Shown here piece by piece: positions 9,388 through 43,504 of a DNA stretch of 64,000 bases. The notes below the pieces were generated by a model that saw nothing but the letters and a program-made list of their open reading frames with translations, was not told the DNA's origin and did not search any database. How positions within the stretch are numbered: the stretch's first letter is position 1; every line of letters starts with the position of its first letter. A program made the translations under genes and the position numbers. Source of the stretch: an uncultured Methanomassiliicoccales archaeon (GTDB lineage: Archaea > Thermoplasmatota > Thermoplasmata > Methanomassiliicoccales > CAZOLG01); NCBI GenBank assembly GCA_964580935.1, contig CAZOLG010000005.1, positions 10,988 through 74,987 of the forward strand, given 5' to 3'.

Positions 9388-10392
9388 TCAGCAGTCCCCG
9401 TAGATCTGTTCCAGCTCCAGATTTTCCTTCGCCGTATCCTTGATCAGATCGATCTTCTCCTGGTCCTCTGGATCGATCCTGGCTATCAGGTGGTCGACCA
9501 TCTCAGCTGCGGTCAGCGTATCGTATCTCACCAATAGTATCGGCACACCGAGCTCGTAGGCCTTGGAGATAACAGTCTTGGCAGGATACAGACCTCCAGA
9601 TAAGATGAGACAGGAACTGTCGGTGGACAGGGCGGCCATCTGTATATCGGGCCTGTCACCGCCGGTGATAACTGCCTTCCTGGGCAGTCTGCGCATGTAT
9701 TTGATCGCGCTCTCCGGCGTCATGGCTCCCACCACTACCTCCTCTACAGACCGGTCGAGCTGGTCCTCTCCAACGATAACTTCTGCCCCTAGAGCATCCA
9801 CGATCTCCTTCACGCGGAAGTGTTTGAGACTATCGATGGTGGGGAATGAGCCCAGAACGTTGATCCCCTTGTCCTCGAGGAAGACCTCTACTGCGGGATC
9901 GTCGTTCTGATTGAGTATCGCCCCCTTGAAATCCAGGTTGTAGTTGTCCATCAACTGCTTGATCATCTGTAGCCTGTCGAGGGACGATGGATCTGGCTGA
10001 GAGACCAGTATCACGTCTGCTCCCACCGCCTGGGCAATGGCCAGTCCGGAGACGTCATGCATGTACCCGGTGGTGATGTCCCTGGTACCCTCTACGAGCA
10101 TCATGTCGCAGTCGCATCTGGCTTTCTCGTAAGCGTCCATGATCTCGGTCATAGAAACGGGCCTGAATATGTCATAGGAGAAAGGTGATATCTCGTCCTC
10201 CTGAGCCTCCAGCTGCATGGTTCTCTTCATGAGATAAGCGTCTTGATCCAGTACGCGGTTACCCGAGTAGACAATGGTCTCCTTGAACGGTTTGAAGTAT
10301 CCTATCTTGCCCTGATAATTCGTGGCCAGACCAAGAGTGATTACCGTCTTTCCCGATCTTTCAGAAACTGAGCCTAAAAATAGAGATTTCAT
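9388..10392 (-). CDS. Stand-alone PtaN-like protein (BioD/CobQ-like P-loop domain plus DRTGG domain)
   Basis: 334 aa. It carries SERSGKTVITLGLA and a C-terminal ITGGDRPDIQ (DRTGG motif), like the N-terminal regulatory half of bacterial Pta. Its start overlaps the stop of the upstream ACD gene by 4 nt. Confidence 0.72.
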   Translation of the reverse strand: MKSLFLGSVSERSGKTVITLGLATNYQGKIGYFKPFKETIVYSGNRVLDQDAYLMKRTMQLEAQEDEISPFSYDIFRPVSMTEIMDAYEKARCDCDMMLVEGTRDITTGYMHDVSGLAIAQAVGADVILVSQPDPSSLDRLQMIKQLMDNYNLDFKGAILNQNDDPAVEVFLEDKGINVLGSFPTIDSLKHFRVKEIVDALGAEVIVGEDQLDRSVEEVVVGAMTPESAIKYMRRLPRKAVITGGDRPDIQMAALSTDSSCLILSGGLYPAKTVISKAYELGVPILLVRYDTLTAAEMVDHLIARIDPEDQEKIDLIKDTAKENLELEQIYGDC

Positions 10393-12512
10393 CGTTCTTC
10401 CCTCCTTATAGTAACTAATGCATCCACAGCATTTCCTCCTTCTCCCTCATCTCCAACGATGACGGGGTTGATTTCGAACTCTGAGATCTCGGGGAAATCG
10501 ACCGAGATCTGCGCGACCTTGAATATGATGTCTTTGAGAGCTTTAATATCCGCGGGCTTCCTGCCCCTGGCACCGGACAGTATGGGATAGGCCTTAATCG
10601 AGGTGATCATGTCGTTGACGTCGGTTTCGGTCAGAGGCGCGATCTTCTGTGAGACGTCCTTCATGATCTCCACGAAGATACCCCCCAGGCCGAAAGTCAT
10701 CACCGGACCGAACTGATCGTCTCTCACCATACCTACGATAGTTTCCCTTCCAGATAACATCTGCTGAATGGAGACGCCCACGATTTCAGCATTGGGCATC
10801 CTGTTCTTGCTTCTTTCGGTAATGAGATTGAACTGCTGTTCCACTTCTTGAGGCGAGGAAACGTCCACTGCCACTCCCCCCACATCGGTCTTGTGGAAGA
10901 TATCAGGAGAAACGATCTTCATGACAACAGGGTAGCCGATACGCTCGGCTATCTCCACCGCCTCCTCAGGGGTGGTGGCCAGGCCTTCATCGGGCACGGG
11001 CACATCATAGGCCTTCAGTATCTCCTTACCTTCATCTTCTCTGAGGGTCAAGCGATTCTCCTCCTTCACATGATCCAGAATCTTTCTGGCCCTCTCCTTA
11101 TCGCCGTTGATATTCACCTCTTCCTCTTTCCGTACACCGTCCCTCATCCTCTTGTACTTAACCATAGCGCCCAGGGCGTTCATAGCCTTATCTGGAGAAT
11201 TGTAATTGGGAATCCCGTGATCTCTGAGTATTCTCACTCCGACATCGGCGTCTTCCCCTCCAATGAATGCCGATACCAGAGGGAGATCCACCTCGCCTGC
11301 AAAGGGGGCCACTATGTTGGCCACCGATTCGATATCCACCACATCGGTGGGTGCCAGCATCACCGCCACGCAGGAGACGTTATCGTCCTCCATGACGGTC
11401 TCGATGGCGAATTTGTACCTCTCATCAGTCGCATCCCCGAGCACGTCGACCGGGTTGTATATGTTGGCCTCATTGGGCAGATATTCCTCCAGTTTCTCGA
11501 TGGTCTCATTGGAGAAAGAGGCCATGGTAAGACCCGCATCGGAGACCGCATCAGCGGCCATCACCCCCATACCTCCAGCATTGGTGACGATGGCCACACC
11601 GTCTCCCTCGGGCAGGGGCATGGTGGCAAAGGCCTGTACGAAATCAAAGAATTCGTCGATGCTGGTGACCCTGATAATGCCCGTCTGATTGAAGGCCGCC
11701 TCGTAGACCTTATCACTTCCAGATAGTGCTCCGGTGTGAGAGGAGGCGGCCTTTGCACCGGTGCTGGTTCTACCGGATTTCAACGCCAATATGGGCTTCT
11801 TCTTGGTGGTCTCGGCCGCTCTGGTCAGAAACTCCGTTCCTCTCTCTGTACCCTCTACATACATACCGATTACTCTGGTCTGATCATCTTCAGCCAGATA
11901 GGGTAACAGTTCGGCCTCATCGATATCCATCTTGTTGCCCACACTGACGAACTTGGAAAAGCCTATCTTTGTTCTTGTGGCCCAGTCCAAGATGGTGGTG
12001 CAGATCGCTCCTGATTGAGAAGTGATGGCCACTCCACCCTGCCGTGGATAATTCTTGGTAAAGGTGGCGTTCATGTCGTGATGTGTATTGATGACCCCCA
12101 GGCAGTTCGGACCTAGAGCCTGAATCCCGTACCTATCGCTGATCTCTCGTACCTGTCGCTCCAGCTCGGCTCCTTCCTTTCCTATCTCTTTGAACCCTGC
12201 GGTGATGATGATGGCGGAGGACACACCTTTCTCCCCTGCCTCTTCCATCACCGCCGGTACGATAGTATTGGGCACTACAACCACCGCCAGGTCCACCGGA
12301 TCGGGGATGTCCTTCACCGAAGCGTAACACTTCAAATCCAGTATCTCATCAGCTTTCGGATTTACGGGGTATAATTCTCCATCAAATCCCGACACGATAA
12401 GATTCCTGAGTATGATGTTTCCCAGTTTCTCCCTTTCTCGGGCAGCACCAATAATCGCTATAGAGACGGGTTCGAACAGTGTTTTCATGTTCTCAATCTG
12501 CATCGATAACAT
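10389..12512 (-). CDS. acd: Acetate--CoA ligase, ADP-forming (ACD), fused alpha-beta form
   Basis: 707 aa. The N-terminus is a CoA-binding and succinyl-CoA-synthetase-like flavodoxin region (VSIAIIGAAR..., GPNCLG). The C-terminus is an ATP-grasp domain (GYPVVMKIVSPDIFHKTDVGGV). Confidence 0.9.
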   Translation of the reverse strand: MLSMQIENMKTLFEPVSIAIIGAAREREKLGNIILRNLIVSGFDGELYPVNPKADEILDLKCYASVKDIPDPVDLAVVVVPNTIVPAVMEEAGEKGVSSAIIITAGFKEIGKEGAELERQVREISDRYGIQALGPNCLGVINTHHDMNATFTKNYPRQGGVAITSQSGAICTTILDWATRTKIGFSKFVSVGNKMDIDEAELLPYLAEDDQTRVIGMYVEGTERGTEFLTRAAETTKKKPILALKSGRTSTGAKAASSHTGALSGSDKVYEAAFNQTGIIRVTSIDEFFDFVQAFATMPLPEGDGVAIVTNAGGMGVMAADAVSDAGLTMASFSNETIEKLEEYLPNEANIYNPVDVLGDATDERYKFAIETVMEDDNVSCVAVMLAPTDVVDIESVANIVAPFAGEVDLPLVSAFIGGEDADVGVRILRDHGIPNYNSPDKAMNALGAMVKYKRMRDGVRKEEEVNINGDKERARKILDHVKEENRLTLREDEGKEILKAYDVPVPDEGLATTPEEAVEIAERIGYPVVMKIVSPDIFHKTDVGGVAVDVSSPQEVEQQFNLITERSKNRMPNAEIVGVSIQQMLSGRETIVGMVRDDQFGPVMTFGLGGIFVEIMKDVSQKIAPLTETDVNDMITSIKAYPILSGARGRKPADIKALKDIIFKVAQISVDFPEISEFEINPVIVGDEGEGGNAVDALVTIRREER

Positions 12513-25607: not shown

Positions 25608-25796
25608 GTGATGACCATGCCGGCGAGAATTGAGAAGAGCTGCGAGGGTTGTGGTGTTTGCATTCCTTCATGCCCAGAAGATATAATCAAGGAGGAGGAG
25701 GGCAGGATCATCATTCAAGAAGCATTCTGTAGGTCCTGTGGCCTGTGTGTTGATTCATGCCCCGTCGGCGCCATCTCTATCCGGGAAGAGGGTTAA
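25608..25796 (+). CDS. 2x[4Fe-4S] ferredoxin
   Basis: 62 aa with two CxxCxxCxxxCP motifs (CEGCGVCIPSCP and CRSCGLCVDSCP). Confidence 0.8.
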   Translation: MMTMPARIEKSCEGCGVCIPSCPEDIIKEEEGRIIIQEAFCRSCGLCVDSCPVGAISIREEG

Positions 25797-25822
25797 GTAG
25801 ACATAAGGAGGTTCATAAATCG

Positions 25823-27778
25823 ATGACCTATTCAGTCAACTTCTTTCCTAAAAATATCACAGTCAAAGTTAAGGAGGGCACCGATCTTCTGGAGGCGGCC
25901 TATCAGGCAGGCATTGAGATTGAGAGTATTTGTGGCGGAGAGGGGACCTGTGGAAAGTGCAAAGTGGTGGTAGAGGGAGAGGTAGAGTCTCCCCCCACAG
26001 GGAAGATCTCTGAGGAAGAGAGAGAAAAGGGGTACAGGCTGGCATGTCAGACGCTGGTCAGAGGGGACGTCAACGTCCTGGTGCCCATCGAAGCGCAGGT
26101 GGCCGATCATAAGATCCTTACCAGCGCTTACCTGGCCGAATTGGAAGAGATCACGCCCCTGGTCAATTCCACATATCTCTCTCTTCCCGAACCCACGCTG
26201 GAGGACAACGTGGGAGATTTGGACCGTGTGGTCCGGGGCCTTGGTTTTGAGGACGGAGAGGTCACGGCCCCGTTGGACCTTCTGAAGAAGATGCCTTCCA
26301 CTCTGAGGGGGAACGATTGGGAAGTGACCGCGTTCTTGGAGGAGTATGAGGGGGAGAAGAAACTGATCAACCTATGTGGTGGTGACCACACCTCCAGAGA
26401 GTACGGGATTGCCGTCGACATAGGCACCACCACGGTGGTTCTCTCCCTGACCGACCTTCAGACAGGTGAGGTGATCGCCCAGGCTTCAGACTACAACAAA
26501 CAGATCCTGTGCGGTGAAGATGTACTTACCCGGATAGCTTACACGGAAGAGGAGGGTGTATCAAGACCGAACAGGCTGGTTCTGGACACGATCAACTTCC
26601 TCATTTCTCAGGTGGCAAGTGAGGTCCGGGACTGTGAAGAGGTAGAGGGGGAGATCGGGACCTGGGAGATCAACAGCATGACCGTGGCTGGGAATACCAC
26701 GATGATACACCTGTTTCTGGGACTCGACCCCCGGTACATAAGATATGAACCTTACATCCCCACCGTCAACGTACCGCCTATATTCAGGGCAGGAGAGTTA
26801 AACTTGCACATCAATCCCCAGGCCCCGGTATTCATACTGCCGGGAAGGGCCGGTTACGTGGGCGGGGATATAACCGCTGGTGTTCTGGCCACTGAACTGT
26901 ACAAGAAGTCTGAACTCTCCCTGCTCATAGATGTGGGCACCAACGGCGAAGTGGTGCTGGGCAATGAGGACTGGATGGTTGCCTGTTCCTGCAGCGCGGG
27001 CCCGGCCTTCGAGGGGGGGGAAGTAAGATACGGCATGAGGGCCATGGCGGGCGCCATAGACTCAGTGAAGATCAGCGAGGATTTCGAGGTGGAGTACACC
27101 ACCATACAGCAGGAGAAGCCCAGAGGGATCTGCGGATCAGGAATGATCGATCTTCTGGCAGATATGCTCGTTCAGGGGATTATCAACAAGAAGGGGCAGA
27201 TACAGGATGTTGCCACCGACCGGGTAAGGGAAAGAAACGATACCAAAGAATTTGTAATCGCCTGGGGACACGAGACAAGTCTGGGGGAGGACAGAATAGC
27301 CCAGATGGACGGAGAGGGAGAGATCGTGGCTGAAGAGAGCGAGGGGATAGATATCGTCATCACTGAGAACGATATAGCCAATGTGGTCAGAACCAAGGGG
27401 GCCGTCTACGCCGCCTGCAGGGTGCTGTTGAACTCCGTCGATCTCAGGTTCGAAGACCTGGATCACATCTACATCGCAGGAGGATTCGGGAACTACCTGG
27501 ACCTGGACAAAGCGATAGTCCTGGGACTCCTGCCCGACATACCCAAAGATAAGTTCACCTTCATTGGCAACGGGTCCCTGGCCGGGGCGAGACTGGCTCT
27601 ATTGTCCGAGAGAATGAGAGAGGATACGAAGGAGATCTTCAAGAAAATGACCTACTTCGAGCTCAGCACTACCAAGATGTTCTTCGATGAGTTTTCGTCT
27701 TCTCTTTTCCTACCTCATACAGAGATCAGTCAATTTCCGACCGTGGGCGCTATTCTCGACGAGAAGGAGAATCCCTAA
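25823..27778 (+). CDS. Reductive activator of corrinoid proteins (RACo/AcsV-like): [2Fe-2S] ferredoxin domain plus ASKHA ATPase
   Basis: Start ATG 25823 lies behind AAGGAGG. The N-terminus has CGGEGTCGKCKV, followed by ASKHA-like blocks (GIAVDIGTTT, DVGTNGE). About 650 aa. Confidence 0.82.
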   Translation: MTYSVNFFPKNITVKVKEGTDLLEAAYQAGIEIESICGGEGTCGKCKVVVEGEVESPPTGKISEEEREKGYRLACQTLVRGDVNVLVPIEAQVADHKILTSAYLAELEEITPLVNSTYLSLPEPTLEDNVGDLDRVVRGLGFEDGEVTAPLDLLKKMPSTLRGNDWEVTAFLEEYEGEKKLINLCGGDHTSREYGIAVDIGTTTVVLSLTDLQTGEVIAQASDYNKQILCGEDVLTRIAYTEEEGVSRPNRLVLDTINFLISQVASEVRDCEEVEGEIGTWEINSMTVAGNTTMIHLFLGLDPRYIRYEPYIPTVNVPPIFRAGELNLHINPQAPVFILPGRAGYVGGDITAGVLATELYKKSELSLLIDVGTNGEVVLGNEDWMVACSCSAGPAFEGGEVRYGMRAMAGAIDSVKISEDFEVEYTTIQQEKPRGICGSGMIDLLADMLVQGIINKKGQIQDVATDRVRERNDTKEFVIAWGHETSLGEDRIAQMDGEGEIVAEESEGIDIVITENDIANVVRTKGAVYAACRVLLNSVDLRFEDLDHIYIAGGFGNYLDLDKAIVLGLLPDIPKDKFTFIGNGSLAGARLALLSERMREDTKEIFKKMTYFELSTTKMFFDEFSSSLFLPHTEISQFPTVGAILDEKENP

Positions 27779-28047: not shown

Positions 28048-29082
28048 GTGCCAGCCGTGAACTGGAACTGCCTGCCCACCTGCATCGGGTCGCTGCCCTT
28101 CACTGATGAGAAAGAGGCCGTAGACCTGGTGCTGGCCCAACTTTCATCGATACCTTTCTGGCCTCAGCTGCCGAAGAAGGGGTTCAGGGAGAACATGTAT
28201 GCACAGTATGCCTACCACCTGCCGGGGATCGACCTGGATCATGAGGGGCAGAAGATCACTATCAATGCCGATGATTCCCAGCTTGAGAGTTTCTACTTGG
28301 AAGTGCTGGCGGAGAACATGGAACATTTCGATTACCCTGAGGACTTCTTCAGCGGGTTTCATGAGTTCATGGGCCGGGACTTGCCGGAGGACATCTGCGC
28401 GGTAAAGGGCCAGATCACGGGGCCGGTAAGCGAGGGGCTCCAGATCCTGGACCAGGGAGGGAAGCCTGTTCTATACGACGATACATACAACGAAGTGGTG
28501 CGGAAGAACCTGAACATGATGGCTCGCTGGCAGGAGGAGAGGCTGAAGGAAAAACTGGACCGTACCATCGTATTCATTGACGAACCTTATCTGTCCCTGA
28601 TGGGAACGCCCTTTGCCAGCATACCTGAACAGGCAGCCATCTCGTGGATGAACGATGTAATGGACGGCCTCGAGGGACTGGTCGGTGCACACTGCTGCGG
28701 TAATACCGACTGGCCCACGGTGATGGCCACCGGTATTGACATACTGTCATTCGACGCCTACGAATACGGGCACACGATTGCACTATACGCGGAAGAGGTG
28801 AGCGAATTCCTGGACCGCGGAGGTGCCCTGGCCTGGGGTTTCATCCCCAACACAATAGACTCTCTGCAGGGGGAAAATGTTCAGTCTCTGGTGAAGGATG
28901 CAAGAGAGCATTTCAAATCATTAGCAGAGAAAGGGATAGACCTGGATCTGATCATCAAGAATTCACTGATCACACCCCAGTGCGGTCTAGCAGAGGTTGA
29001 AGAGGCAACCAGTGTTCGCATTTTAGAGATGTTGAATCAGGTATCGGAGAGGATCAGAACGGAGTACAGTTTGGAGGACTGA
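28048..29082 (+). CDS. MetE C-terminal-like ('core MetE'-type) Zn-dependent methyltransferase
   Basis: 344 aa. MetE-type Zn/thiol-activation motifs are present: GAHCCGNTDW (His-x-Cys) and TPQCGLAE (C-terminal Cys). There is no N-terminal folate-binding barrel. The stop lies 2 nt before the cooC ATG, with GGAGGA inside its 3' end. Confidence 0.68.
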   Translation: MPAVNWNCLPTCIGSLPFTDEKEAVDLVLAQLSSIPFWPQLPKKGFRENMYAQYAYHLPGIDLDHEGQKITINADDSQLESFYLEVLAENMEHFDYPEDFFSGFHEFMGRDLPEDICAVKGQITGPVSEGLQILDQGGKPVLYDDTYNEVVRKNLNMMARWQEERLKEKLDRTIVFIDEPYLSLMGTPFASIPEQAAISWMNDVMDGLEGLVGAHCCGNTDWPTVMATGIDILSFDAYEYGHTIALYAEEVSEFLDRGGALAWGFIPNTIDSLQGENVQSLVKDAREHFKSLAEKGIDLDLIIKNSLITPQCGLAEVEEATSVRILEMLNQVSERIRTEYSLED

Positions 29083-29084
29083 CT

Positions 29085-29846
29085 ATGAGTTATACGATTG
29101 CAGTTGCAGGCAAAGGTGGTGTGGGTAAATCCACCATCTCGTCTATACTAGTGAGAACGATAGTCCAGAAGGTCGATGATATAATACTCGCCGTTGATGC
29201 CGACCCTAACGCCAACCTGGGAGAGAAACTGGGAGTTCCAGTAGAGAAGACCATCGGAGACCTTAGAGAGGACCTTCTCAATGAGGCGGAGGAGATACCG
29301 GCGGGTACCAGCAAGCAGGAATATGTGAGATACCAGCTGCGGTTGGCGATGTCGGAGGGAGAGATGTTCGATCTGCTCACCATGGGCCGACCAGAGGGGC
29401 CCGGATGCTACTGTTACATCAACAACATACTCAGAACATATCTGGACGGCATGATGGAGGAGTACCCCTACGTGGTCATCGACAACGAAGCGGGGATGGA
29501 GCATCTGTCCAGGAGGACTACCAAGAGGATGGATCTCCTGGCAGTGGTCACTGACGCCACCAAGGTGGGAGTGGAGACGGCAACAAGAATTGCAGAACTG
29601 GCAGAGGAGATGGAATTGAATGTCACCAACAGGGTCCTGCTGGTGAACCGGGTTCAGAACGACCTACATCCCGTGGTGAAGGAGGTCATCTCCAATTCAG
29701 GATTTGAAAACGTAATAAAGGTGCCCTTTGACAAACAGGTCGATGAGCTGACCATCGCGGGCAGACCCTTGACTGCGTTGGACAGAACCAGTTCGGCGGC
29801 GAGGACCATAAAGGACCTGGTGCAGCAGATCAGAGAGTGGAATTGA
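29085..29846 (+). CDS. cooC: CooC/AcsF-family Ni-insertion ATPase (copy 1)
   Basis: 253 aa. It has the deviant Walker A GKGGVGKST and the CxC Ni motif (GPGCYCYIN). Confidence 0.9.
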   Translation: MSYTIAVAGKGGVGKSTISSILVRTIVQKVDDIILAVDADPNANLGEKLGVPVEKTIGDLREDLLNEAEEIPAGTSKQEYVRYQLRLAMSEGEMFDLLTMGRPEGPGCYCYINNILRTYLDGMMEEYPYVVIDNEAGMEHLSRRTTKRMDLLAVVTDATKVGVETATRIAELAEEMELNVTNRVLLVNRVQNDLHPVVKEVISNSGFENVIKVPFDKQVDELTIAGRPLTALDRTSSAARTIKDLVQQIREWN

Positions 29847-29896: not shown

Positions 29897-31234
29897 TCAG
29901 TCCATTGACTTCAACAGCTTGGGGATCCCGCTCGACTCCTGCGGACCCACAATCACATCCAGTCCTGTGAGCTCCTCGAGCTTTCCGCTCATCCTGGAGA
30001 CCATACCCGGGATTATGATTTCTCCTCTCTTGGAATTCTCCTGGGCATCCGAATCTTCCAAGGCCTTGGCCACCAATTCAGGTGTCAGCTTTCCGGCCGC
30101 AAAAGCGGTCATCACAGACAGCCCTTCAGTGTCCACCACTTGAAGCCACACCGGCTTCTTGCTCTTCTCCACGTCCCCAATCACGGTGAAGTATGTCAGG
30201 GAGAAGTTGGTGGTGAATACTATCGGCGAATCCTCGTCGGGATCGTTCACCGCATACAATTTAGGCTCCACCTGGATCGGTACCTGCGGGTCTGTGTATA
30301 TGTTCTGACGCAACACGAACAGGGGCAGGGCGTGTTCTACCTTCAGCTCGTCAAAGGCCACCACGCTGCCGTACTTCATGGTGGCCACGATGCCCTTGAG
30401 TACCGACTTATCGCCGTCCAGTGCGTTGACGAAAATCGGGTATCCCAATCCCCTGAACGTCTTGTTGATGGAGATTCTCCTGACAATGGTGCTCTTCTCC
30501 AGTAGTTCCTTTAGATCGCTTGAACCGAAGTCGATGACTATTTTCTCCACTCCTGCCTTTTTCACCTTGTCCACCAGATCGGCCAGTTCGTCGAGGCTGC
30601 CGTCTTCAAATACCACCAGTGGGCAGTCCAGCTCGTCGGCAACCGATGCCATCTGGTCCGCGTTGTCAACGGTGGCCGCATGAAGGAGTGGTTTCTTATC
30701 AGCGATCCGCGAAGCTGCGGCCTTTATAGACTCAGGGTCTTTGGAAAACAGGATCAGAGGCAGTTCCGTACCGTTGGCCACTTTTTCCACGACCTCAGCG
30801 AATGCATCAGCATCCCCCGAATCGTCCCTGACCCCGACCATGTCCATCTTTATTATCTGGCCCACACGCTCGAACTGTAGCCCGTTCGCTTTGTTCACCT
30901 TGGCTTCTATCTCCTCATCAGAGGCCTTGTCGGAAACGGTGAGAGCGAAGGCTACAGGGTGGAAGAACTTCTTTTCGTGCCTGTACAACTCCGTCTCATC
31001 TCCCATCTCGATCTGGTTCTCTCCAGTCCCCACTTTTACTAGCTTGATAGGCGGCGCAGACGAGGCTTCCAGTTCCGCCTTTGCATCATCAGAAACATTC
31101 GGGCAGTCCTCCAGTTCGACCTTCTGGTTGGCCAGCTGCATCGCAAAGGCCAGACAGGTGGGGAACCCGCAGTCGCCACAGTTGGTCTGGGGAAGTAATT
31201 TGAATATCTCCATAGCTGTAGGCATTTCAGTCAC
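29897..31234 (-). CDS. acsC: Corrinoid iron-sulfur protein large subunit (AcsC/CdhE)
   Basis: 445 aa. The N-terminal [4Fe-4S] motif is NCGDCGFPTCLAFAM...CP. It looks colinear with Moorella AcsC as I remember it (TNFSLTY, IVGPQESSGI). Confidence 0.9.
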   Translation of the reverse strand: MTEMPTAMEIFKLLPQTNCGDCGFPTCLAFAMQLANQKVELEDCPNVSDDAKAELEASSAPPIKLVKVGTGENQIEMGDETELYRHEKKFFHPVAFALTVSDKASDEEIEAKVNKANGLQFERVGQIIKMDMVGVRDDSGDADAFAEVVEKVANGTELPLILFSKDPESIKAAASRIADKKPLLHAATVDNADQMASVADELDCPLVVFEDGSLDELADLVDKVKKAGVEKIVIDFGSSDLKELLEKSTIVRRISINKTFRGLGYPIFVNALDGDKSVLKGIVATMKYGSVVAFDELKVEHALPLFVLRQNIYTDPQVPIQVEPKLYAVNDPDEDSPIVFTTNFSLTYFTVIGDVEKSKKPVWLQVVDTEGLSVMTAFAAGKLTPELVAKALEDSDAQENSKRGEIIIPGMVSRMSGKLEELTGLDVIVGPQESSGIPKLLKSMD

Positions 31235-32177
31235 CTCCTCTCAGGTCGTCCACCGCTTCATTGATTATCTTCATTGCCCCAGGGCTGCGCACAATAAGCA
31301 TATCCGCCCCGGACATGATGGCTGCTATACCGGTGGTCGCCTCCCACCAGTCGCCTCGCTCCTTCACGTCCCCCAACTCAGGGCTAGGATCTGTGGCTTC
31401 TCTTGCTCCCCATGCTGCCGAAGCGTCGCATATCATGGGGTTCTGCAGTATGTTGTCCCCCATCAGAGCCGCCAGGCGTATTCTCTCGTTGACCGAGTAA
31501 GAGTATTCTAGTCCCACCCCCAGAGCGGCCATCAACGGATCGGCTATGACGTCTTCGAGATCAACATCGAAGTCCGTGAGCAAGATATTGATCTGCTTGG
31601 CCAGGTTGATATCAAGGTTTGAGAATCCGATGAGGACATGGTCATTAGACATCGCGGCCGCCGATATGGACTTATAGGCGTCCTCCTCGGCATGGCCCAG
31701 TACCAGACGTTCATCGGGGGCCGCGTTGCTCACCGCCTCCATCGTCTTGGCGTCCGTGTCCTCGTGACCGCATCCGTAAACGATGAGGGGCAGCTTTACA
31801 GTGTCCAATACCTCCTTCACCGTCTCGGCTGCCTCTTCTGGAGAACGGTCCTCTTCTTCAGGGTTGGTGGACAGGAACCTGAGGCATATCGCATCCGCCC
31901 CGAATTCCTCCCACTTCTTCGCCCATTGGGCGGGGTCGTCCACCGCATCGCCAAATACCTCCCTGACCACATCTGGGAAATCCTTGAGTTTATCCAAGAC
32001 CTCTCCAGCAATAGCCGGTCGATGAGGCGATTCGTTCTCGAAGGATAGGAAGGGTAGACCGGTCTGTCCACCGATTGTCACTGTGTTCCTTGAACCTCCC
32101 TCTTCCTCCCCCTTTCCTAGTGTCACTTCTCTAATCTTACCGCTCCATTCTTCTTTTGGCAAAGGTACTTCAGTCAT
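31227..32177 (-). CDS. acsD: Corrinoid iron-sulfur protein small subunit (AcsD/CdhD)
   Basis: 316 aa, a TIM-barrel AcsD-like protein. It overlaps acsC by 8 nt and lies directly downstream of the CODH/ACS gene. Confidence 0.88.
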   Translation of the reverse strand: MTEVPLPKEEWSGKIREVTLGKGEEEGGSRNTVTIGGQTGLPFLSFENESPHRPAIAGEVLDKLKDFPDVVREVFGDAVDDPAQWAKKWEEFGADAICLRFLSTNPEEEDRSPEEAAETVKEVLDTVKLPLIVYGCGHEDTDAKTMEAVSNAAPDERLVLGHAEEDAYKSISAAAMSNDHVLIGFSNLDINLAKQINILLTDFDVDLEDVIADPLMAALGVGLEYSYSVNERIRLAALMGDNILQNPMICDASAAWGAREATDPSPELGDVKERGDWWEATTGIAAIMSGADMLIVRSPGAMKIINEAVDDLRGGD

Positions 32178-32199: not shown

Positions 32200-35100
32200 T
32201 CAACTTATCAATGGGGGCATATCCAGGGCGGGATGGTCCACCTTCTGCATCCACTCGGTAAGACCCTGCGCGTCGGTGCAGATCGTCTCATCCGCTATCT
32301 TCTCCACGAAGTCTGGTTTTCCAAGTTCCTCGGCCCTCTCCTTCAGATCGTCCATCAGTGCTTCCTTCAACGACTTGGGCATCCAGGCAATACGGAAAAA
32401 GCCGCCGTCCGCGGGGATGAACTTCTCGCTGATCAGGTATTTCCTACCCACACCTATGAATCCCGGAGTCTGTTTTCCACCGCCGACAGAACCGGCCAGT
32501 GTGGAGAACTTCATTCCCAAAGGAGTTATTCCCGGGTACTCACGGTTGACCACCACCACTCCCTGCATGTCTGTGGTCATACCCACGATGCATTCGAAAC
32601 ACCCGCAGGAAGTCATCGGGTCCTCCATCATTGTGTAGGCATTGAACTTCTTCAGCTTGTGATGGCTGTATTCATAGACGGCCTCGTTAACTCCTTTCCA
32701 CTGGCCCTTCTCTGCGTCAATGACCTCTCCTTTCTCTATTGGCTGGTTGGGTCCGGTAGGGGTGATCTCTTTGCTTGCCCTGGCATCGAGCCAGTTGATC
32801 GCACCGCACAGGCCCAGTCTCTGGGGAGTGATCACGCATACGTGGTCGGGGGCGAACGACTGACAGAGAGTGCAGGAATAGAAGATATCCACCGCCTCGT
32901 CGGTGAGGTCAGCGATCCGCTCGTCCCTCTTCTCGTAGGCCTCCTTGGCCTCGGGTATGTAGTCCTGCATCGCCTCTTCGTCGGTGAGCACCGTTACCTG
33001 AACCCTGCTTATGATGTTCCCGAACTCTTCCTTCAACTTTGTTATTAGTATGTCTCCGATGTGTTTGAACCGGAGCCCAGCGTTGACCGAACTCTTGCTC
33101 AACCGGATCCACAGAATGTCCCTCTGTCCGGTGTGCCATCCTCCCTCAGCGAAGTTAATGAACTGGTGTATCCTCCTTTCGAGCACGGACTCGAAGTCTT
33201 CTTCCATCTTCTTACCGTACACTTCGACCACGATGCCGAGGGGGCTCTTTCCGCCCTCTTCCATCTCATCAACGTCCTTTCCGATGAGGGTGATCTTTCC
33301 ATCTTCCACCTCGTCCTCGTCCCTCATCTTGAGGATCTCGAAAGCGGTGGTCTTGGCCGCTCCGCCAGCTTCGATGTACGTCTGCGGCCTCCTGACCGTC
33401 TCCCCCTCAAAAGCGGGACCATAGGCCACAGGTATGTCGACGGGTTCCAGCTTGACCTGTATGTCTCTGACCTCGATGGCGGTCTGGATCATCTTCTCGT
33501 AGTCCTTCTGCACCACGTACTTATCAGGTATCTCCTCCACCTCCTGGTCAGTGATGGTCGGAGAGCCGTTGAACATTACCGCGAACTCGGCCGCGGCCTT
33601 GATATGGTCGATGGGGCCCATCTGAAGCACGAAGACCTTGGGCCTCTTGGAGAGGTACTTGTACAGTGACTCCCTGTCTCCTCTTTCAACCCCTCCGAAT
33701 GAGAGTGCTGCCCTTATTGCGAAGTTCAGTCCGTGTATGGCCTGAGTGAACTCTCCCACAGGGTAAAGCATGATGTCCAAGCCCATCTGTATGCCCTCGT
33801 CCTGCAGTTGCCTGATGACATCGAATGTGGCTATGATCAGCATACCCTTGCTCTGACAGTCACGGACCACCTTGGCCAGTTTTTCAGGGTCTTCTGCGGT
33901 CCCCACGAGGACCGCTGCTCCCGGTATTGTGTCGTCCACGAAGTCGATCCCCAGTTCCCTGAGCACCATGTCGGGAACGAATCCGCAGTACGGTGTATCC
34001 TCGTAGGGGTCGTCCGTCTCCACGTACTTCAGTGCCTCTACGATCTCCGCGGAGATCATAGTGGCCTCTCCCGCGATAAGAGCGTTCTCGTAGGTGGACT
34101 CCTCCCGGATCTTGTTCCGGACCTTGCCCAGTATCGTGGGCAGGTCGCCGAGTTTCTTCACCTCGGCACCGTCCCAGGCGAAAATGGAGGGCAGCTCATA
34201 CCCAGTATCCGGGTATTCCACCGGCTCCTGGTACCCGTATCGATCGATGGCCACTCCCAGCAGCTGATCAGCGTACCCAGTAGCGATAATCGCTCCCTCG
34301 ATGGCCATCTCGTAAAGCCTCTCCTGACTGATGGGTTCACCCTCCTCTCTCACGTAAGTATTATCCAGTCGCAGTACCCATCTCCTGTACTCCAGCGTGT
34401 TAAGGATCTTGTCCGCGGCCTTCATGGGGTCCTTCTCGAAGATGAAGTACCCGCCGTAGACGTCCCTGGCCGTGTTCTCCAGTACCTCGGTCACCAGGGA
34501 TGAACCGTAGATGTAGTTGATTGTGCCTACATGGGTGGGCATCCCCATGGCCACACACCAGGCACCGATGGTCACCGCTTTTTCGTGGTTAGCTTCCGGT
34601 GCTGAGGCCACGAACGGTATCTCGTCCACATCGGTATCGAACCTCTCTGCTATGGCAGTGGCGAAATTGGCCGCCCTGCTGTTGTCCACGCAGGAGCCCA
34701 TGTGCCATATGGGTGGCAGGTCGACCCCGTTCTCCCCCTTCAGCCCGCTGATGAATTTGTTAAGGCCTTCTCCGGCGTACTCCTCCAGTGCCTCCGAGGA
34801 CATCAGACCTTCCTTGGCCAGTGCGGCGGCCGAACAGCCAGTGGTCACGATCAGCACGTCATTGGCTATCAACTCCTTGGCTATGGTCACGTGGTTGTAA
34901 TCCTGAACCGCATTCTGGTTGTTACAGCCGGCCATCAGTGCCACGCCCCTGATGGTGCCGTCTTTGATGTTATCTATGATGTGCATCAACGGATCAGATT
35001 CGTTGTAAGGGGAGCAGAGTTCCTCGATCTGCTCGAGGCTGAACCCGGCAATCACCTCGTTCTTGATGTCAGGGATGAAAATATTCTCGTTGTCTTCCCT

Positions 35101-36279
35101 CTGAGTATAGGCCTCTATCGCCAGCCTTATGATGGCCCTGGCGCTCTCTTCAGCGTCCTCCTCCCTAAACTGTATATGTGTATCATTGGGAAGTCGCACG
35201 TTAGGCATGGTGGTGGTCATCTTGGTGGGAAGACAGGAACACAACTGGGCCATGGAGGGAACGATACACTGATAGTCAGCCACCACCAGGTCCACAGCGC
35301 CCGTAGAAAGCACCAACTCCTGGGAGGAGAAGTTAGCGGCCATCGGGACCCCCTTTCGCATCAGAGTCTCGTTCCCGGTACAGCATATACCTATGATATT
35401 GATTCCCTCAGCACCAGCATCCTTGGCCTCATCCTCCATCTCTTTGGCCACGTCCACCACCACATCACTGAGCACTGGGTTGTGGCCGTGAACGGCTATA
35501 TTGACCATGTCCTTGTTGATGGCCCCCAGATTGGCCATGGTTTTCACCAGTTTCGGGGTGCCGAACAGGATGTCGGAGAGGTCCGTTGAGATCTGCTCAC
35601 CGGTGAGATCCGCGACGGCGGCATTTATTCCGGCGAACAGGATGGGTACTGGATCGGCGTCACACCCAAGGGTGGTGCGATGCATGATATCCGAGATTGA
35701 CTGCTCAATATTATTGGGCATCACGCCCAGTCTTTTCCACAGGGCAATCCTGTCCTCTGTGATCGTAGAGGTGGCAAATCTGGTGGGCACTTCCTCATGC
35801 CGGTTGAAATCGTCCCAGACCACCTCCAGTATTTCTTCCATCACATCGTGTTCTTCGACACCCTCGGTCTCAATACCCAGACGGCCGGCAACTCTCTCCA
35901 GCTTCTCCTTATCCTTAATACTGTAAGCGGGAGCTTTTCCCTCTAGGACCTTGTGAACCGTCTCTGCCAGGTGTCTTCCGTGACCGGAGTGGGCAGCCGC
36001 CCCTCCAGCGATATTCCTTATCAGATTTCGGGCCACTATGGTGTAGGCTCTCGCACCGCAGATCCCCTTGTCCGGTTTGCCTCCGAAGGGGTTGATCCGA
36101 CAGGGGCCCTGGAGGCAGTTCCTGCAACATATACCGAGCTCTCCGAAGCCGCACTGGGGCTGCATGGCTTCGAACCGGTCCCACATCGTCTCTATATTCT
36201 TGTCAGCAGCAACGGGCAGACACTGCATTACGGCCTCATCGCAACTTCTCCCTAGATCTATCTTATCTTTAGACTCCAT
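32200..36279 (-). CDS. acsAB: Single-polypeptide fusion of CooS/AcsA-type Ni-CO dehydrogenase (aa 1 to ~636) and full-length AcsB acetyl-CoA synthase (aa ~650 to 1359)
   Basis: One uninterrupted 1359-aa ORF. The N-terminal half carries CODH motifs: QPQCGFGELGICCRNCLQGPCRI, HGHNP, ICCTGNE, GCNN, MGSCVDNSR. The C-terminal half carries AcsB motifs: ATGYADQLL, YPDTGYELP, the A-cluster ligands SCTLCQSFAPDHVC, LCGA and TSCGCFE, and IAWMPKSLK. The junction is ...LEYRRWVLRLDNTYVREEGEPISQERLYEM... (about nt 34324-34371). Confidence 0.9.
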   Translation of the reverse strand: MESKDKIDLGRSCDEAVMQCLPVAADKNIETMWDRFEAMQPQCGFGELGICCRNCLQGPCRINPFGGKPDKGICGARAYTIVARNLIRNIAGGAAAHSGHGRHLAETVHKVLEGKAPAYSIKDKEKLERVAGRLGIETEGVEEHDVMEEILEVVWDDFNRHEEVPTRFATSTITEDRIALWKRLGVMPNNIEQSISDIMHRTTLGCDADPVPILFAGINAAVADLTGEQISTDLSDILFGTPKLVKTMANLGAINKDMVNIAVHGHNPVLSDVVVDVAKEMEDEAKDAGAEGINIIGICCTGNETLMRKGVPMAANFSSQELVLSTGAVDLVVADYQCIVPSMAQLCSCLPTKMTTTMPNVRLPNDTHIQFREEDAEESARAIIRLAIEAYTQREDNENIFIPDIKNEVIAGFSLEQIEELCSPYNESDPLMHIIDNIKDGTIRGVALMAGCNNQNAVQDYNHVTIAKELIANDVLIVTTGCSAAALAKEGLMSSEALEEYAGEGLNKFISGLKGENGVDLPPIWHMGSCVDNSRAANFATAIAERFDTDVDEIPFVASAPEANHEKAVTIGAWCVAMGMPTHVGTINYIYGSSLVTEVLENTARDVYGGYFIFEKDPMKAADKILNTLEYRRWVLRLDNTYVREEGEPISQERLYEMAIEGAIIATGYADQLLGVAIDRYGYQEPVEYPDTGYELPSIFAWDGAEVKKLGDLPTILGKVRNKIREESTYENALIAGEATMISAEIVEALKYVETDDPYEDTPYCGFVPDMVLRELGIDFVDDTIPGAAVLVGTAEDPEKLAKVVRDCQSKGMLIIATFDVIRQLQDEGIQMGLDIMLYPVGEFTQAIHGLNFAIRAALSFGGVERGDRESLYKYLSKRPKVFVLQMGPIDHIKAAAEFAVMFNGSPTITDQEVEEIPDKYVVQKDYEKMIQTAIEVRDIQVKLEPVDIPVAYGPAFEGETVRRPQTYIEAGGAAKTTAFEILKMRDEDEVEDGKITLIGKDVDEMEEGGKSPLGIVVEVYGKKMEEDFESVLERRIHQFINFAEGGWHTGQRDILWIRLSKSSVNAGLRFKHIGDILITKLKEEFGNIISRVQVTVLTDEEAMQDYIPEAKEAYEKRDERIADLTDEAVDIFYSCTLCQSFAPDHVCVITPQRLGLCGAINWLDARASKEITPTGPNQPIEKGEVIDAEKGQWKGVNEAVYEYSHHKLKKFNAYTMMEDPMTSCGCFECIVGMTTDMQGVVVVNREYPGITPLGMKFSTLAGSVGGGKQTPGFIGVGRKYLISEKFIPADGGFFRIAWMPKSLKEALMDDLKERAEELGKPDFVEKIADETICTDAQGLTEWMQKVDHPALDMPPLIS

Positions 36280-36810
36280 CCAAATCCTCTCCCGTGGTTA
36301 CCTACAAATTGAAGCTTATCCAATTCCTGAGAAAATGTTCTAGTAGAATGAGCGGGTTTCATTAACCTCCCGCAAAACACATCCTTCTCATTGGTCACCG
36401 TACATCCTCCCAGAAAAAACGATCCTCCCTCCCCCAGTGAATAGCCGGGACTACTGGCGATGTCATAACGCGGGCTATCTATTCGGGAAGGGGTAATTGT
36501 CCCTCTCATGGGCACACCCACTCACCAAGGAAATTCACCATCCAGTGAATCTTCTCAGCGCTGGCACTGCGAGATTGTGATGGTCATACTTTAATGTTTT
36601 CGTCCTTTGTCGAAGCCGGGTAGGTTCATAGCGTTTACGCCCGCCCAAGAGAGAAGGAGCTTTGCCTCTTTGAACATGTGGGGCAGCCACCATCCTCGAC
36701 ATTGTGTGAATGGGTGATTGCCTCACTGGATACTCAGAAGAGTTGATCATAGAGGGGCACTTTCAGGCGAATCGATGTGAATGACGCTGGCCGGAAGGAT
36801 GACAAGAGTC

Positions 36811-36828
36811 ATTCGTCATATGACGAAT
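36811..36828. promoter_or_regulatory. Perfect 18-bp palindrome ATTCGTCATATGACGAAT, a candidate operator
   Basis: Read directly from the sequence. It lies 30 nt downstream of the ACT-protein stop and ~530 nt upstream of the acsAB start. Additional ATGAC half-site-like copies occur at 36780-36805. Confidence 0.3.
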
Positions 36829-36857
36829 ATCAAGTTCGCAAGATACAATACTACTGC

Positions 36858-37790
36858 TCAGAACTCGATATCATTTAGGGCCACCAGGCTGTACTCTCTC
36901 CTCATGTCGGAGAGGAACTCTTCGATGTTCTTCCTCAGATCATCTTTCCCTATGGGACAGCTACTGACATCGGCTATGAGATCCAGGGTCATCTTCTCGT
37001 AGTAAGAGAGTACCTTTGTGTAAACACTCAATAGATTGATGTCGTATTTCGCCAGGTACTCGGTCACCTGCTGTATGGCCCCCGGCCTGTCGGGTATGGT
37101 GAAGTCAATTTCCATCAACTGTATACCCGGTTTGAGCAGGGTGATAGAGAGTACCCAGGAATCGGTATCGCCGACCAGCATCACGGGATGGTTCTCCTCG
37201 ACACTCTCGAACAGTTCCAGGTACTCCTGGGGCACCTCGAATTCGCCGTTCTTGATCTCGGAAGAGCTCCGGTGCCTCCTCTTGACCACCTTGGTCTGCA
37301 CTGAGGACACAGACGGGGCCACGCCCTTGGTGTATCGATCGGAGATGTTCGATGGTTTGATCTCCAGTGCGTCCACCTTGTTAAGGGAGGGGTCGTTCTT
37401 CCCCTTCATAGTATTGAACTCATCCAGTAGTTCTTCATGGTCGCCATAGTAGCTCAGATCGACCAGCATCTTCCATACCATGCATACATCGGAGATCATA
37501 CTCAGAGAGACCGAATTCAAGATGTCTATATTCCTGTCGCCCATGAACTTGGCTATCTGAGCACATGCTCCTGGGATATCCACCATGTAGAAGGTGGCCG
37601 AGCATATCCTCCTGTAGTTCTCAGGTCCGAAGGTGGAGAGCACTATCTCATAGCTCCTAGAGCCGTTGTAATCGTACCTGAACATGGTGCTGAATACCTG
37701 GCTCCCGTCGGACAGGCCGAGTGGTTTACCTACCCTATCGCTCACCTTGACCTTACCGTCCTTCAACCTCGCGAAATCCCACAGTCTCAT
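36858..37790 (-). CDS. Uncharacterised protein with two ACT domains and a possible N-terminal AbrB/SpoVT-like domain
   Basis: 310 aa. The ACT-like segments are FYMVDIPGACAQIAKFMGDRNIDILNS and FTIPDRPGAIQQVTEYLAKYDINLLSV. The N-terminal GKVKVSDRVGKPLGLSDGSQV resembles a swapped-hairpin DNA-binding motif; this match is weak. Confidence 0.55.
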   Translation of the reverse strand: MRLWDFARLKDGKVKVSDRVGKPLGLSDGSQVFSTMFRYDYNGSRSYEIVLSTFGPENYRRICSATFYMVDIPGACAQIAKFMGDRNIDILNSVSLSMISDVCMVWKMLVDLSYYGDHEELLDEFNTMKGKNDPSLNKVDALEIKPSNISDRYTKGVAPSVSSVQTKVVKRRHRSSSEIKNGEFEVPQEYLELFESVEENHPVMLVGDTDSWVLSITLLKPGIQLMEIDFTIPDRPGAIQQVTEYLAKYDINLLSVYTKVLSYYEKMTLDLIADVSSCPIGKDDLRKNIEEFLSDMRREYSLVALNDIEF

Positions 37791-38139: not shown

Positions 38140-38943
38140 CTATTCAGAAAGCCTTGTCTCCAGAGTCTCCTTGACGGTTCTCACTGCTTCCACCACATCT
38201 TCGATACCGTCCACGTCCATCGGGGAGCGACCTGCCAGGTCAGCTTCCATCATCTTCTGATTGAACGGTATGGTGGATATCAGCTCTATGCCCAGCTCGT
38301 CCAGTCTCTCTTTTATCACCCTTTCATCCTCTTCAGAAAAGGCCTTGTTCAGGACGGCCACCACCCTGGGTATCCCGATGTCTGTGGCCAACTTCTTGAT
38401 CTTGGAGGCGGTCTCTACGGACCTCATTCCCGGTTCAACCACGATGATCATGACGTCCATGTTTTTTGAAGAAGCTCTCCCCAGATGCTCCAGGCCGGCC
38501 TCCATATCCATGATCAGGTACTGGTCCTCCTCCAGAACAAGGTATTTTAGCAGGTTCTTCAGCAGGGCGCTTTCAGGACAGAAACATCCTCCTCCACCGG
38601 ACCTGATAGTCCCCAGAATGAGAAGCCTCACGTTGTCCTTGGCCCCCACCGCGTACCTCTCCGCCAGATCGTCCACCTTGGGGTTCAACTTGAACATCCC
38701 GCCGTAACCGGATCCGGGCCTGGAACCGGTCCGCTCCTCGATCAGGTCCAGCATCTGCGAGAGGGGTACCACTCCCTCCAGCTCTTCCTCGGGAACGCCC
38801 ACGACACTGGCCAGATTTGAAGCGGGATCAGCGTCCAGAACCAGGGTGTCTTTGCCCTCCCTCCCGAACAGTCTGGAGAGGATTCCTCCCAATGTGGTCT
38901 TTCCTACCCCGCCTTTACCTGATATGGCGATTTTCAATGCCAT
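38140..38943 (-). CDS. cooC: CooC/AcsF-family Ni-insertion ATPase (copy 2)
   Basis: 267 aa with GKGGVGKTT and the CxC motif (GGGCFCPES). It abuts cooT with no spacer. Confidence 0.9.
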   Translation of the reverse strand: MALKIAISGKGGVGKTTLGGILSRLFGREGKDTLVLDADPASNLASVVGVPEEELEGVVPLSQMLDLIEERTGSRPGSGYGGMFKLNPKVDDLAERYAVGAKDNVRLLILGTIRSGGGGCFCPESALLKNLLKYLVLEEDQYLIMDMEAGLEHLGRASSKNMDVMIIVVEPGMRSVETASKIKKLATDIGIPRVVAVLNKAFSEEDERVIKERLDELGIELISTIPFNQKMMEADLAGRSPMDVDGIEDVVEAVRTVKETLETRLSE

Positions 38944-43398: not shown

Positions 43399-43504
43399 GC
43401 GGGGGTAGCCAAGCTTGGCCAAAGGCGCAGGACTTAAGTTCCCTGCCCGCGGATGAGATATCCTGTCACATAGGAGTCCGAGGGTTCAAATCCCTCCCCC
43501 CGCA
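43399..43504 (+). tRNA. tRNA-Leu(UAA) with a 21-nt canonical (37/38) intron at 43439-43459
   Basis: The acceptor stem is GCGGGGG/CCCCCGC with discriminator A. The T arm is GAGGG-TTCAAAT-CCCTC. It has a long D loop and a 14-nt variable region (class II). The anticodon stem is CAGGA/TCCTG and the anticodon TAA lies at 43435-43437. The intron forms a bulge-helix-bulge: central helix CUUA:UGAG with 3-nt bulges AG^U and AU^A. No CCA is encoded. Confidence 0.85.

Follow-up and report, generated by a model that had tools for sequence, protein, structure and literature searches.

One chain for carbon monoxide dehydrogenase and acetyl-CoA synthase: a fused AcsA-AcsB gene in a Methanomassiliicoccales archaeon

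Can a carbon monoxide dehydrogenase (CODH) and an acetyl-CoA synthase (ACS) be carried on one polypeptide chain? Together they form CODH/ACS, which is central to anaerobic carbon fixation and is targeted for CO2/CO bioconversion. In the characterised enzymes of Moorella, Carboxydothermus and Clostridium autoethanogenum, as in the archaeal acetyl-CoA decarbonylase/synthase (ACDS), they are separate chains, as an earlier note on this DNA correctly stated for Moorella and ACDS. The question is raised by a gene in a 64,000-nucleotide stretch (the window) of contig CAZOLG010000005.1 from an uncultured Methanomassiliicoccales archaeon, which the note had read as one uninterrupted 1359-residue open reading frame (ORF) holding a complete CooS/AcsA module, a linker of ~15 residues and a complete AcsB. 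We find that 32200..36279 is a genuine covalent fusion of a complete CODH and a complete three-domain ACS joined by a short linker of ~12-16 residues, and that the gene very probably encodes a functional single-chain CODH/ACS of the bacterial type. The gene and its parts are:

32200..36279, minus strand: fused AcsA-AcsB gene, 1359 aa (Ni-CODH module, linker, three-domain acetyl-CoA synthase), from the ORF and from domain/family and structure matches
34372..36249, minus strand: CODH module (CooS/AcsA, clade-F-like), residues ~11-636, from alignment to CODH-II 1su6_A
34327..34374, minus strand: interdomain linker LRLDNTYVREEGEPIS, residues ~636-651, flanked by the CODH-II and AcsB alignments
33445..34326, minus strand: ACS A1 domain (CODH-docking, tunnel-bearing), residues ~652-945, from PF18537 and 9fu4_B
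32200..33444, minus strand: ACS A2-A3 domains with the A-cluster ligands, from PF03598 and PF19436

In the ORF listing of the window the gene is a single stop-free frame of 1359 codons that starts with ATG, a few bases 3' of GGAGAGGA, and the DNA across the junction contains no stop, N or frame change, so the uninterrupted frame claimed by the note is real. Its translation contains the motifs GICCTGNE, AGCNN, HMGSCVDNSR, LRLDNTYVREEGEPISQ, SCTLCQSFAPDHVC, GLCGA and TSCGCFE. Four Pfam domains are found along the chain: Prismane (PF03063) at 50-618 with 539 bits, CODH_A_N (PF18537) at 674-753, CdhC (PF03598) at 949-1103 and ACS_CODH_B_C (PF19436) at 1115-1358. The NCBIfam CooS model TIGR01702 covers residues 12-636 with profile positions 1-619 of 621 (692 bits; cutoff 478), and NF040764, a model titled 'acetyl-CoA decarbonylase/synthase complex subunit alpha/beta' that matches the AcsB half of the fusion, covers residues 660-1358 with profile positions 1-705 of 705 (982 bits; cutoff 800). 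As both matches run end to end and lie above the curated cutoffs, both halves are full length. Comparison with solved structures gives the same boundaries: residues 11-636 align to CODH-II 7-632 of 636, residues 648-1357 to Moorella AcsB 17-728 of 729, and residues 652-940 to residues 17-310 of an isolated A1 domain (9fu4_B), leaving a connector of about 10-15 residues outside the CODH-II and AcsB alignments. With E-values of 1e-160 to 1e-295, chance similarity is no concern. The complete modules described in the note are thereby borne out (the CODH with its quoted motifs by TIGR01702 and the aligned cluster ligands, the AcsB with its docking domain and A-cluster ligands by NF040764 and PF18537), as is the length it gave for the linker.

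Are the metal sites of both modules in place? Residue alignment of the CODH half to CODH-II (1su6_A) shows conservation of the D-cluster cysteines (C43, C51), the B-cluster cysteines (C52, C55, C60, C74), the C-cluster ligands (H266, C300, C338, C452, C482, C530) and the acid-base residues H97 and K567. In the ACS half the A-cluster candidates C1136, C1139, C1148 and C1158 (cubane) and C1225-G1226-C1227 (Ni) are present; they were assigned by applying the constant offset of 630, found in the structure alignment against the numbering of Moorella and Carboxydothermus AcsB, to the Moorella positions, which we take to be C506/C509/C518/C528/C595/G596/C597. Across 28 aligned fused homologues the CODH ligands and catalytic His/Lys vary little or not at all, and none of the seven A-cluster residues varies. 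From these alignments, both halves look catalytically competent.

Does the fusion extend beyond this contig? A search space of 5.8 billion protein clusters, with matches grouped at 90% identity, yielded at least 120 clusters with the same four-domain architecture, 57-81% identical to the window protein and 1355-1390 residues long; they originate from NCBI, JGI, ENA and Logan, and some have hundreds of members. Between the invariant anchors RRW632-634 and L655 the fused homologues carry 20, 26, 28-29 or 31 residues, depending on the subclade, and the sequences of these linkers are unrelated among subclades while always remaining in frame between highly conserved flanks, which indicates long-term selection for the fusion. 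A locus scan with one genome per GTDB species found 596 relatives, of which the best 80 loci were analysed for a single stop-free ORF. Eleven of the 80 are single-ORF fusions (L001-L008, L011, L012, L026), all archaeal, with the labels Methanomassiliicoccales, Thermoplasmata, 'Methanobacteriota', 'Euryarchaeota' and, once, 'Halobacteriota'; the fused Thermoplasmata loci include UBA10834, the name-giving genome of Ca. Gimiplasmatales. Two of the fusions, L008 and L012, lie intact on complete chromosomes, and L071 is a fusion gene with frameshifts. In every bacterial locus among the 80 that has both genes they are two separate adjacent ORFs, in lineages that include Bacillota, Planctomycetota, Actinomycetota and Desulfobacterota-type groups, among others.

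We also scanned 1.84 billion representatives at 50% identity with HMMER, using as query the 601 residues (400-1000) that span the junction. Continuous alignment that included a real CODH part was found only in P0096 and P0124 (partial), P0126 and P0167 being N-terminally altered forms, and no independent full CODH-ACS fusion was found elsewhere among these representatives. On the evidence of these searches, the CODH-then-ACS orientation is confined to one protein family. The window protein shows its full pattern, with the four domains, the RRW...L anchors, alignment through the junction and a position inside the archaeal clade.

A few fused genes come from metagenome-assembled genomes (MAGs) labelled 'Halobacteriota' or 'Bathyarchaeia' (L011, P0097, P0099), which may be a matter of mis-binning or of taxonomy labels, or may mean that the gene was really transferred beyond Thermoplasmata; L011 (6775-7257, 7904-12119) has an N-terminal fragment duplicated upstream, plus a frameshift. 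Two fused homologues, P0020 (1894 aa) and P0025 (1896 aa), are interrupted by an intein of ~537 residues with Intein_splicing and LAGLIDADG_3 domains. It is inserted between 'SCTL' and 'CQSFAPDHVC', corresponding to window residues 1138/1139 (nt ~32863-32865), and directly precedes the A-cluster cysteine equivalent to C1139 (the Moorella C509 position), which would act as the +1 extein nucleophile. An intein sits at this profile position in P0148 too, an AcsB representative that is not fused.

How might the two modules be arranged in one chain? An AlphaFold2 model of residues 1-945 (CODH, linker and A1), computed from a 46-sequence alignment, has a predicted template modelling score (pTM) of 0.90 and a mean predicted local distance difference test score (pLDDT) of 87. 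Averages of pLDDT over ten-residue blocks across 631-660 are 91-96, and linker residues 636-651 are predicted to form an ordered coil between the last CODH helix (618-635) and the first A1 helix (652-681). The sole poorly predicted internal segment is 43-60, the D/B-cluster cysteine loop, presumably because this loop depends on both the dimer and the clusters. For a chain of two modules, a pTM of 0.90 implies that CODH and A1 are arranged in a defined way, and since a floating 300-residue A1 would be unlikely to produce such a value, the linker in this model appears long enough for, and compatible with, docking of A1 on its own CODH in cis. A Foldseek search of the PDB returned only the CODH part, with TM-scores of 0.96 (TMt) and 0.65 (TMq) against CODH-II; the search compares single chains and is silent on domain arrangement. 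No solved chain with both a CODH and an ACS module was among the PDB matches.

Which known enzyme does the fusion resemble most closely? The CODH/ACS enzymes of Moorella thermoacetica (AcsA2AcsB2; 1MJG, 1OAO) and Carboxydothermus hydrogenoformans (7ZKJ) have the same catalytic modules and metal-ligand sets, the same three-domain ACS with A1, and the partners AcsC, AcsD, AcsV and CooC/AcsF in common with it. Bit scores against their chains are 810-813 for the ACS half and 655-661 for the CODH half. They differ in that CODH and ACS are separate polypeptides, whereas the fusion is one chain in an archaeal host and has no separate alpha and beta subunits as in the Moorella-type alpha2beta2 enzyme. 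In place of the Moorella AcsA C-tail and AcsB N-tail, about 31 residues, it has its connector of about 10-15. Operon order differs as well, the fusion heading AcsAB-AcsD-AcsC with a divergent AcsV-MesB-CooC group and Neomoorella stamsii (L010) having CooC-AcsA-AcsB-AcsC-AcsV-CooC-AcsD. The best solved relative of the CODH half is the monofunctional CooS of Carboxydothermus hydrogenoformans, CODH-II (1SU6; 704 bits, 50% identity, identical cluster motifs), a free-standing homodimer without an ACS partner, in contrast to the fusion CODH with its attached ACS. The CODH half might be a CODH-II-like monofunctional enzyme that was captured independently; its scores of 704 bits against CODH-II and 661 against AcsA differ little.

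Archaeal ACDS (CdhABCDE) shares with the fusion its overall chemistry and an archaeal host. It nonetheless has a CdhA-type CODH with extra ferredoxin-like clusters, where the fusion is of the AcsA/AcsB type: the cdhA model TIGR00314 gives 53 bits on the fusion against a cutoff of 781, CdhC models match only 947-1352, and the A1 domain is present, placing the fusion outside the CdhA/CdhC type. CdhC of ACDS is a two-domain ACS without A1 that binds CODH only transiently (bioRxiv 10.64898/2026.07.07.736967). Covalent joining recurs in CODH/ACS systems, and the matches in the representative library include AcsB-AcsD (P0143 and P0170, 1209 and 1225 aa), AcsD-CODH (P0207, 1122 aa), DUF166-CODH (P0131, 878 aa) and Pyr_redox_2 (pyridine-nucleotide-disulphide oxidoreductase)-AcsB (P0167, 1024 aa) fusions; AcsD-CODH has a parallel in Desulfomonile tiedjei (WP_014808137.1) in a supplementary table of Inoue et al. 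2019. Joining of subunits is therefore nothing unusual in this enzyme, but in these cases partners and orientations differ and none joins the two catalytic modules of the CO tunnel.

Does the neighbourhood supply what such an enzyme would need? The relevant genes in the window are:

31227..32177, minus strand: AcsD, small subunit of the corrinoid iron-sulfur protein (CoFeSP), 22 nt downstream of the fusion (NF003376, 356 bits; synteny)
29897..31234, minus strand: AcsC, CoFeSP large subunit, with an 8-nt overlap with the AcsD end (NF003195, 558 bits; synteny)
29085..29846, plus strand: CooC/AcsF-type P-loop ATPase, putative Ni-insertion chaperone (MinD/ParA-family matches only)
28048..29082, plus strand: MetE-like gene, candidate MesB-type core methionine synthase (weak PRK00957 match, E = 3.5e-8)
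25757..27778, plus strand: AcsV-like corrinoid activation/regeneration protein (NF040756, 639 bits, below the exception-level cutoff of 800)
36858..37790, minus strand: ACT-domain protein, 310 aa, with a PRK08577-like C-terminus, upstream of the fusion (PF01842)
38140..38943, minus strand: second CooC-type P-loop ATPase (CbiA/ParA-family matches)
10389..12512, minus strand: ADP-forming acetyl-CoA synthetase, Acd (TIGR02717, 595 bits, above cutoff)

The fusion heads an AcsAB-AcsD-AcsC operon, with the CooC-type ATPase, MetE-like and AcsV-like genes transcribed divergently, so that CoFeSP genes, a corrinoid activator and candidate Ni-insertion ATPases all adjoin it. The arrangement recurs in related loci, including those in which the CODH has decayed (see below). 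The AcsV-like gene is conserved in the cluster. The ATPase gene at 29085..29846, whose role in Ni insertion we infer, is kept beside the cluster in L005, L007, L008, L026, L071 and others, and a homologue of the second CooC-type gene lies directly upstream of the fusion in L004, L005 and L026. The MetE-like gene has no Pfam match; it is kept inside the CODH/ACS cluster across loci at 49-53% identity and fits the MesB class. For MesB core methionine synthases CoFeSP is the predicted methyl donor, and MesB is reported as the single methionine synthase of Methanomassiliicoccales (PMC7857596). The ACT-domain gene, found at the same upstream position in L001, L002, L024, L025, L028 and L038, may encode a small-molecule-sensing regulator of the cluster. 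Acd, 20 kb from the fusion, is a likely outlet or inlet for acetyl-CoA. No AcsE gene is present in the CODH/ACS cluster. Published MAG reconstructions of Ca. Gimiplasmatales and RBG-16-68-12, in which 'acsA-E' and AcdAB are listed, put forward (methylotrophic) acetogenesis but make no mention of a single gene for acsA and acsB (PMC11264602).

Where did the fusion come from? In a neighbour-joining analysis of the ACS halves over 690 columns, with 100 bootstraps, all 22 Thermoplasmata sequences group in a single clade (bootstrap 100), beside the Bacillota/Moorella-type AcsB. This topology would fit a single acquisition of a bacterial-type cluster and a later fusion of the neighbouring genes. Within the clade, and with weak support, fused sequences are interleaved with 'AcsB-only' ones from Methanomassiliicoccus, Methanomethylophilaceae and Methanarcanum, and several of the related genes carry remnants of a CODH. 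L024 (7941-10205) aligns from residue 626 and retains the last CODH helix and the linker. The ~990-residue proteins of L035 (7269-10262), L036 (4132-7095), L038 (2122-5085) and P0126 carry a degenerate C-terminal piece of CODH in which no Pfam CODH domain is detectable; they retain the DxFGG and ERRRW motifs and all A-cluster ligands, but in place of the C-cluster cysteines they have Leu/Met, Val/His or Trp/Gly/Lys (with a gap at one position in L038). The AcsD, AcsC, MetE-like and CooC-type genes are syntenic in the CODH-decayed loci, and AcsV is seen in L035 and L038. From these remnants we infer that the clade probably started out with the fusion and that its methyl-reducing methanogens saw their CODH module decay. 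The loci suggest a CODH-less ACS/CoFeSP system in methanogens of the Methanomassiliicoccales/Methanomethylophilaceae; in non-methanogenic Thermoplasmata the fusion is lineage-specific and evolutionarily stable.

How would a single-chain enzyme arise, assemble and work? A Bacillota-like acsA-acsB gene pair would have been present in a Thermoplasmata ancestor. Once the acsA stop codon was lost and both terminal tails were trimmed, the CODH C-terminus would have become joined to the A1 N-terminus, with the short linker packing on the protein surface. By analogy with the two-subunit enzymes, two chains would dimerise through their CODH modules and share the D-cluster, giving an (AcsAB)2 particle equivalent to Moorella alpha2beta2. 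The C-cluster would interconvert CO2 and CO, CO would pass through an internal tunnel across A1 to the A-cluster, and the A-cluster would combine CO, CoA and a methyl group from the co-transcribed AcsCD into acetyl-CoA, or run the reverse reaction; flux could be in the direction of either acetogenesis or acetyl-CoA cleavage. AcsV would reactivate the corrinoid and the two CooC-type ATPases would insert Ni. A1 is the static domain of ACS and, as only this immobile domain is tethered, the swinging motions of A2/A3 should be unaffected. The fusion would enforce 1:1 stoichiometry and a permanent association of CODH and ACS. No new chemistry is expected from it, as the subunits it joins are already tightly bound. 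Carboxydothermus, for its part, can run ACS as a free monomer.

Several points weigh against this account. Support for every family member consists of sequence and prediction. The AlphaFold2 model is a monomer without A2/A3 and without cofactors, and docking within the dimer may be in trans (domain-swapped) as an alternative to cis. The direction of horizontal transfer, from Bacillota, comes from a small neighbour-joining tree only, and internal branching in this tree is weak (bootstrap 16-53), so that a single basal origin of the fusion is deduced mainly from the remnants in related genes.

Could the fusion instead be an artefact, with adjacent acsA and acsB genes merged by a sequencing or assembly error at the junction? 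In all bacteria examined acsA and acsB are adjacent, co-oriented and a few bases apart or overlapping, so that a single error could mimic a fusion, and some long-read MAG loci (L067, L071, L007, L011) do have frameshifts inside the fusion gene. We give this reading practically no credence, however, given the same in-frame architecture in at least 120 independent clusters from four sources, linker lengths that differ by whole codons among subclades between invariant flanks, and intact fusions on the complete chromosomes of L008 and L012, all of which answer the condition under which the note would have read two genes, a stop or frameshift at the junction. Moreover, the Moorella tails (about 15 + 16 residues outside the aligned cores) are replaced by a shorter connector, which is not what simple read-through of an intergenic spacer would leave. 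It is also improbable, in our view, that the gene is fused and the mature enzyme nevertheless has two subunits, through linker cleavage or through an ACS that is initiated internally and made separately. Nothing favours this directly; in the fused protein no part varies more than the linker, and in the window AGGAG lies 12 nt upstream of the Met658 codon. Yet many fused homologues have Lys in place of Met658, the linker is predicted to be ordered and packed (pLDDT above 90), unlike an exposed flexible loop, and none of the genes conserved in the cluster encodes a protease. As this Met is not conserved, initiation at Met658 was considered but rejected as a feature of the family.

The CODH module might, finally, be a relic, with ACS/CoFeSP cleaving acetyl-CoA for methyl supply, for example to a MesB-like synthase, and releasing CO. 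Acetyl-CoA cleavage for methyl groups with CO release has been proposed for Dehalococcoides. Decayed forms do exist in the related Methanomassiliicoccales loci (L035, L036, L038, P0126), and MesB is the predicted recipient of methyl groups from CoFeSP (PMC7857596). In the window protein and 27 other full-length fusions, however, the CODH ligands and catalytic His/Lys are kept as described above, which argues for purifying selection on a working CODH; the CODH half reaches 692 bits against the CooS equivalog, and two CooC-type maturation ATPases are retained. We therefore regard a relic CODH in these proteins as very improbable and favour a functional single-chain CODH/ACS.

A bolder proposal builds on the functional single-chain enzyme, and we offer it tentatively, as possible but rather doubtful. 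The fusion would be an ancient trait of a Thermoplasmata clade with an acquired bacterial-type CODH/ACS, and the tether would be functionally consequential, making CODH-ACS coupling obligatory with no free ACS monomer. Methanogenic Methanomassiliicoccales would have lost the CODH module progressively, in a 'deletion series' from the intact protein through a ligand-less stub to linker remnants, with ACS/CoFeSP/MesB kept, recording the change from a carbon fixer to an acetyl-CoA-cleaving supplier of C1 units. If this is true, the family is a ready-made system for asking what CODH gives ACS beyond CO supply.

Had the fusion been seen before? The note knew of no characterised fused form, and in this it holds, as we found none; the architecture itself is already on record. 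Supplementary Table 1 of Inoue et al. 2019 flags two such fused proteins from uncultured euryarchaeotal MAGs, one of 1275 aa and one partial, both binned as 'others'; the main text does not discuss them and has one sentence on the classification of fused Ni-CODHs. Going by architecture, these entries are almost certainly members of the same protein family as the window fusion. Automatic JGI names also give both functions for fused proteins. We found no discussion, enzymology or structure of a CODH-ACS fusion in the literature, a mention in Adam et al. 2018 (PNAS), Hu et al. 2021 or Zinke et al. 2021 being possible. A phrase-level literature search for an acsA-acsB or CODH-ACS fusion returned no relevant paper ('AcsAB' mostly denotes cellulose synthase), and the fusion is unmentioned in a 2026 eLife genomic-context paper, the 2026 ACDS preprint, a Cell 2024 hydrogenase paper and wetland MAG papers. 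The fusion is thus an architectural variant of a known enzyme, catalogued before and, as far as we found, biochemically and structurally unstudied.

As no change in chemistry is expected and the architecture was already on record, in databases too, the value of the fusion is practical and evolutionary rather than conceptual. A single-chain form fixes stoichiometry and dispenses with the co-expression and assembly of two subunits, and as a construct it is less complicated to use when heterologous expression, cryo-EM or tunnel engineering is the aim. The fusion is also a clean marker for one acquisition of bacterial-type CODH/ACS by Thermoplasmata, and in methanogenic relatives its decayed forms suggest a way for an acetyl-CoA synthase system to be put to another use.

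Other features of the window concern its host and the surroundings of the cluster. Archaeal markers are present in the form of diphthine synthase, HerA-Mre11-Rad50, RadA and an archaeal-type phosphoenolpyruvate carboxylase. Between the ACT-protein gene and the start of the fusion lies a non-coding stretch of ~580 bp (36280-36857) with no Rfam match, and near the cluster Rfam detects neither a riboswitch nor any other RNA. A tRNA of 106 nt at 43399-43504 (plus strand; 47 bits by Rfam), missed by ARAGORN, probably contains an intron. A URO-D-family protein at 50803-51921 (plus strand) is encoded beside a radical-SAM protein with an HMPTM-type zinc ribbon at 52524-53894 (plus strand). The URO-D family includes methylcobamide methyltransferases, and the HMPTM domain is named after a methyltransferase of methanopterin biosynthesis; the pair hints that this organism carries out corrinoid-dependent methyl transfer and makes methanopterin.

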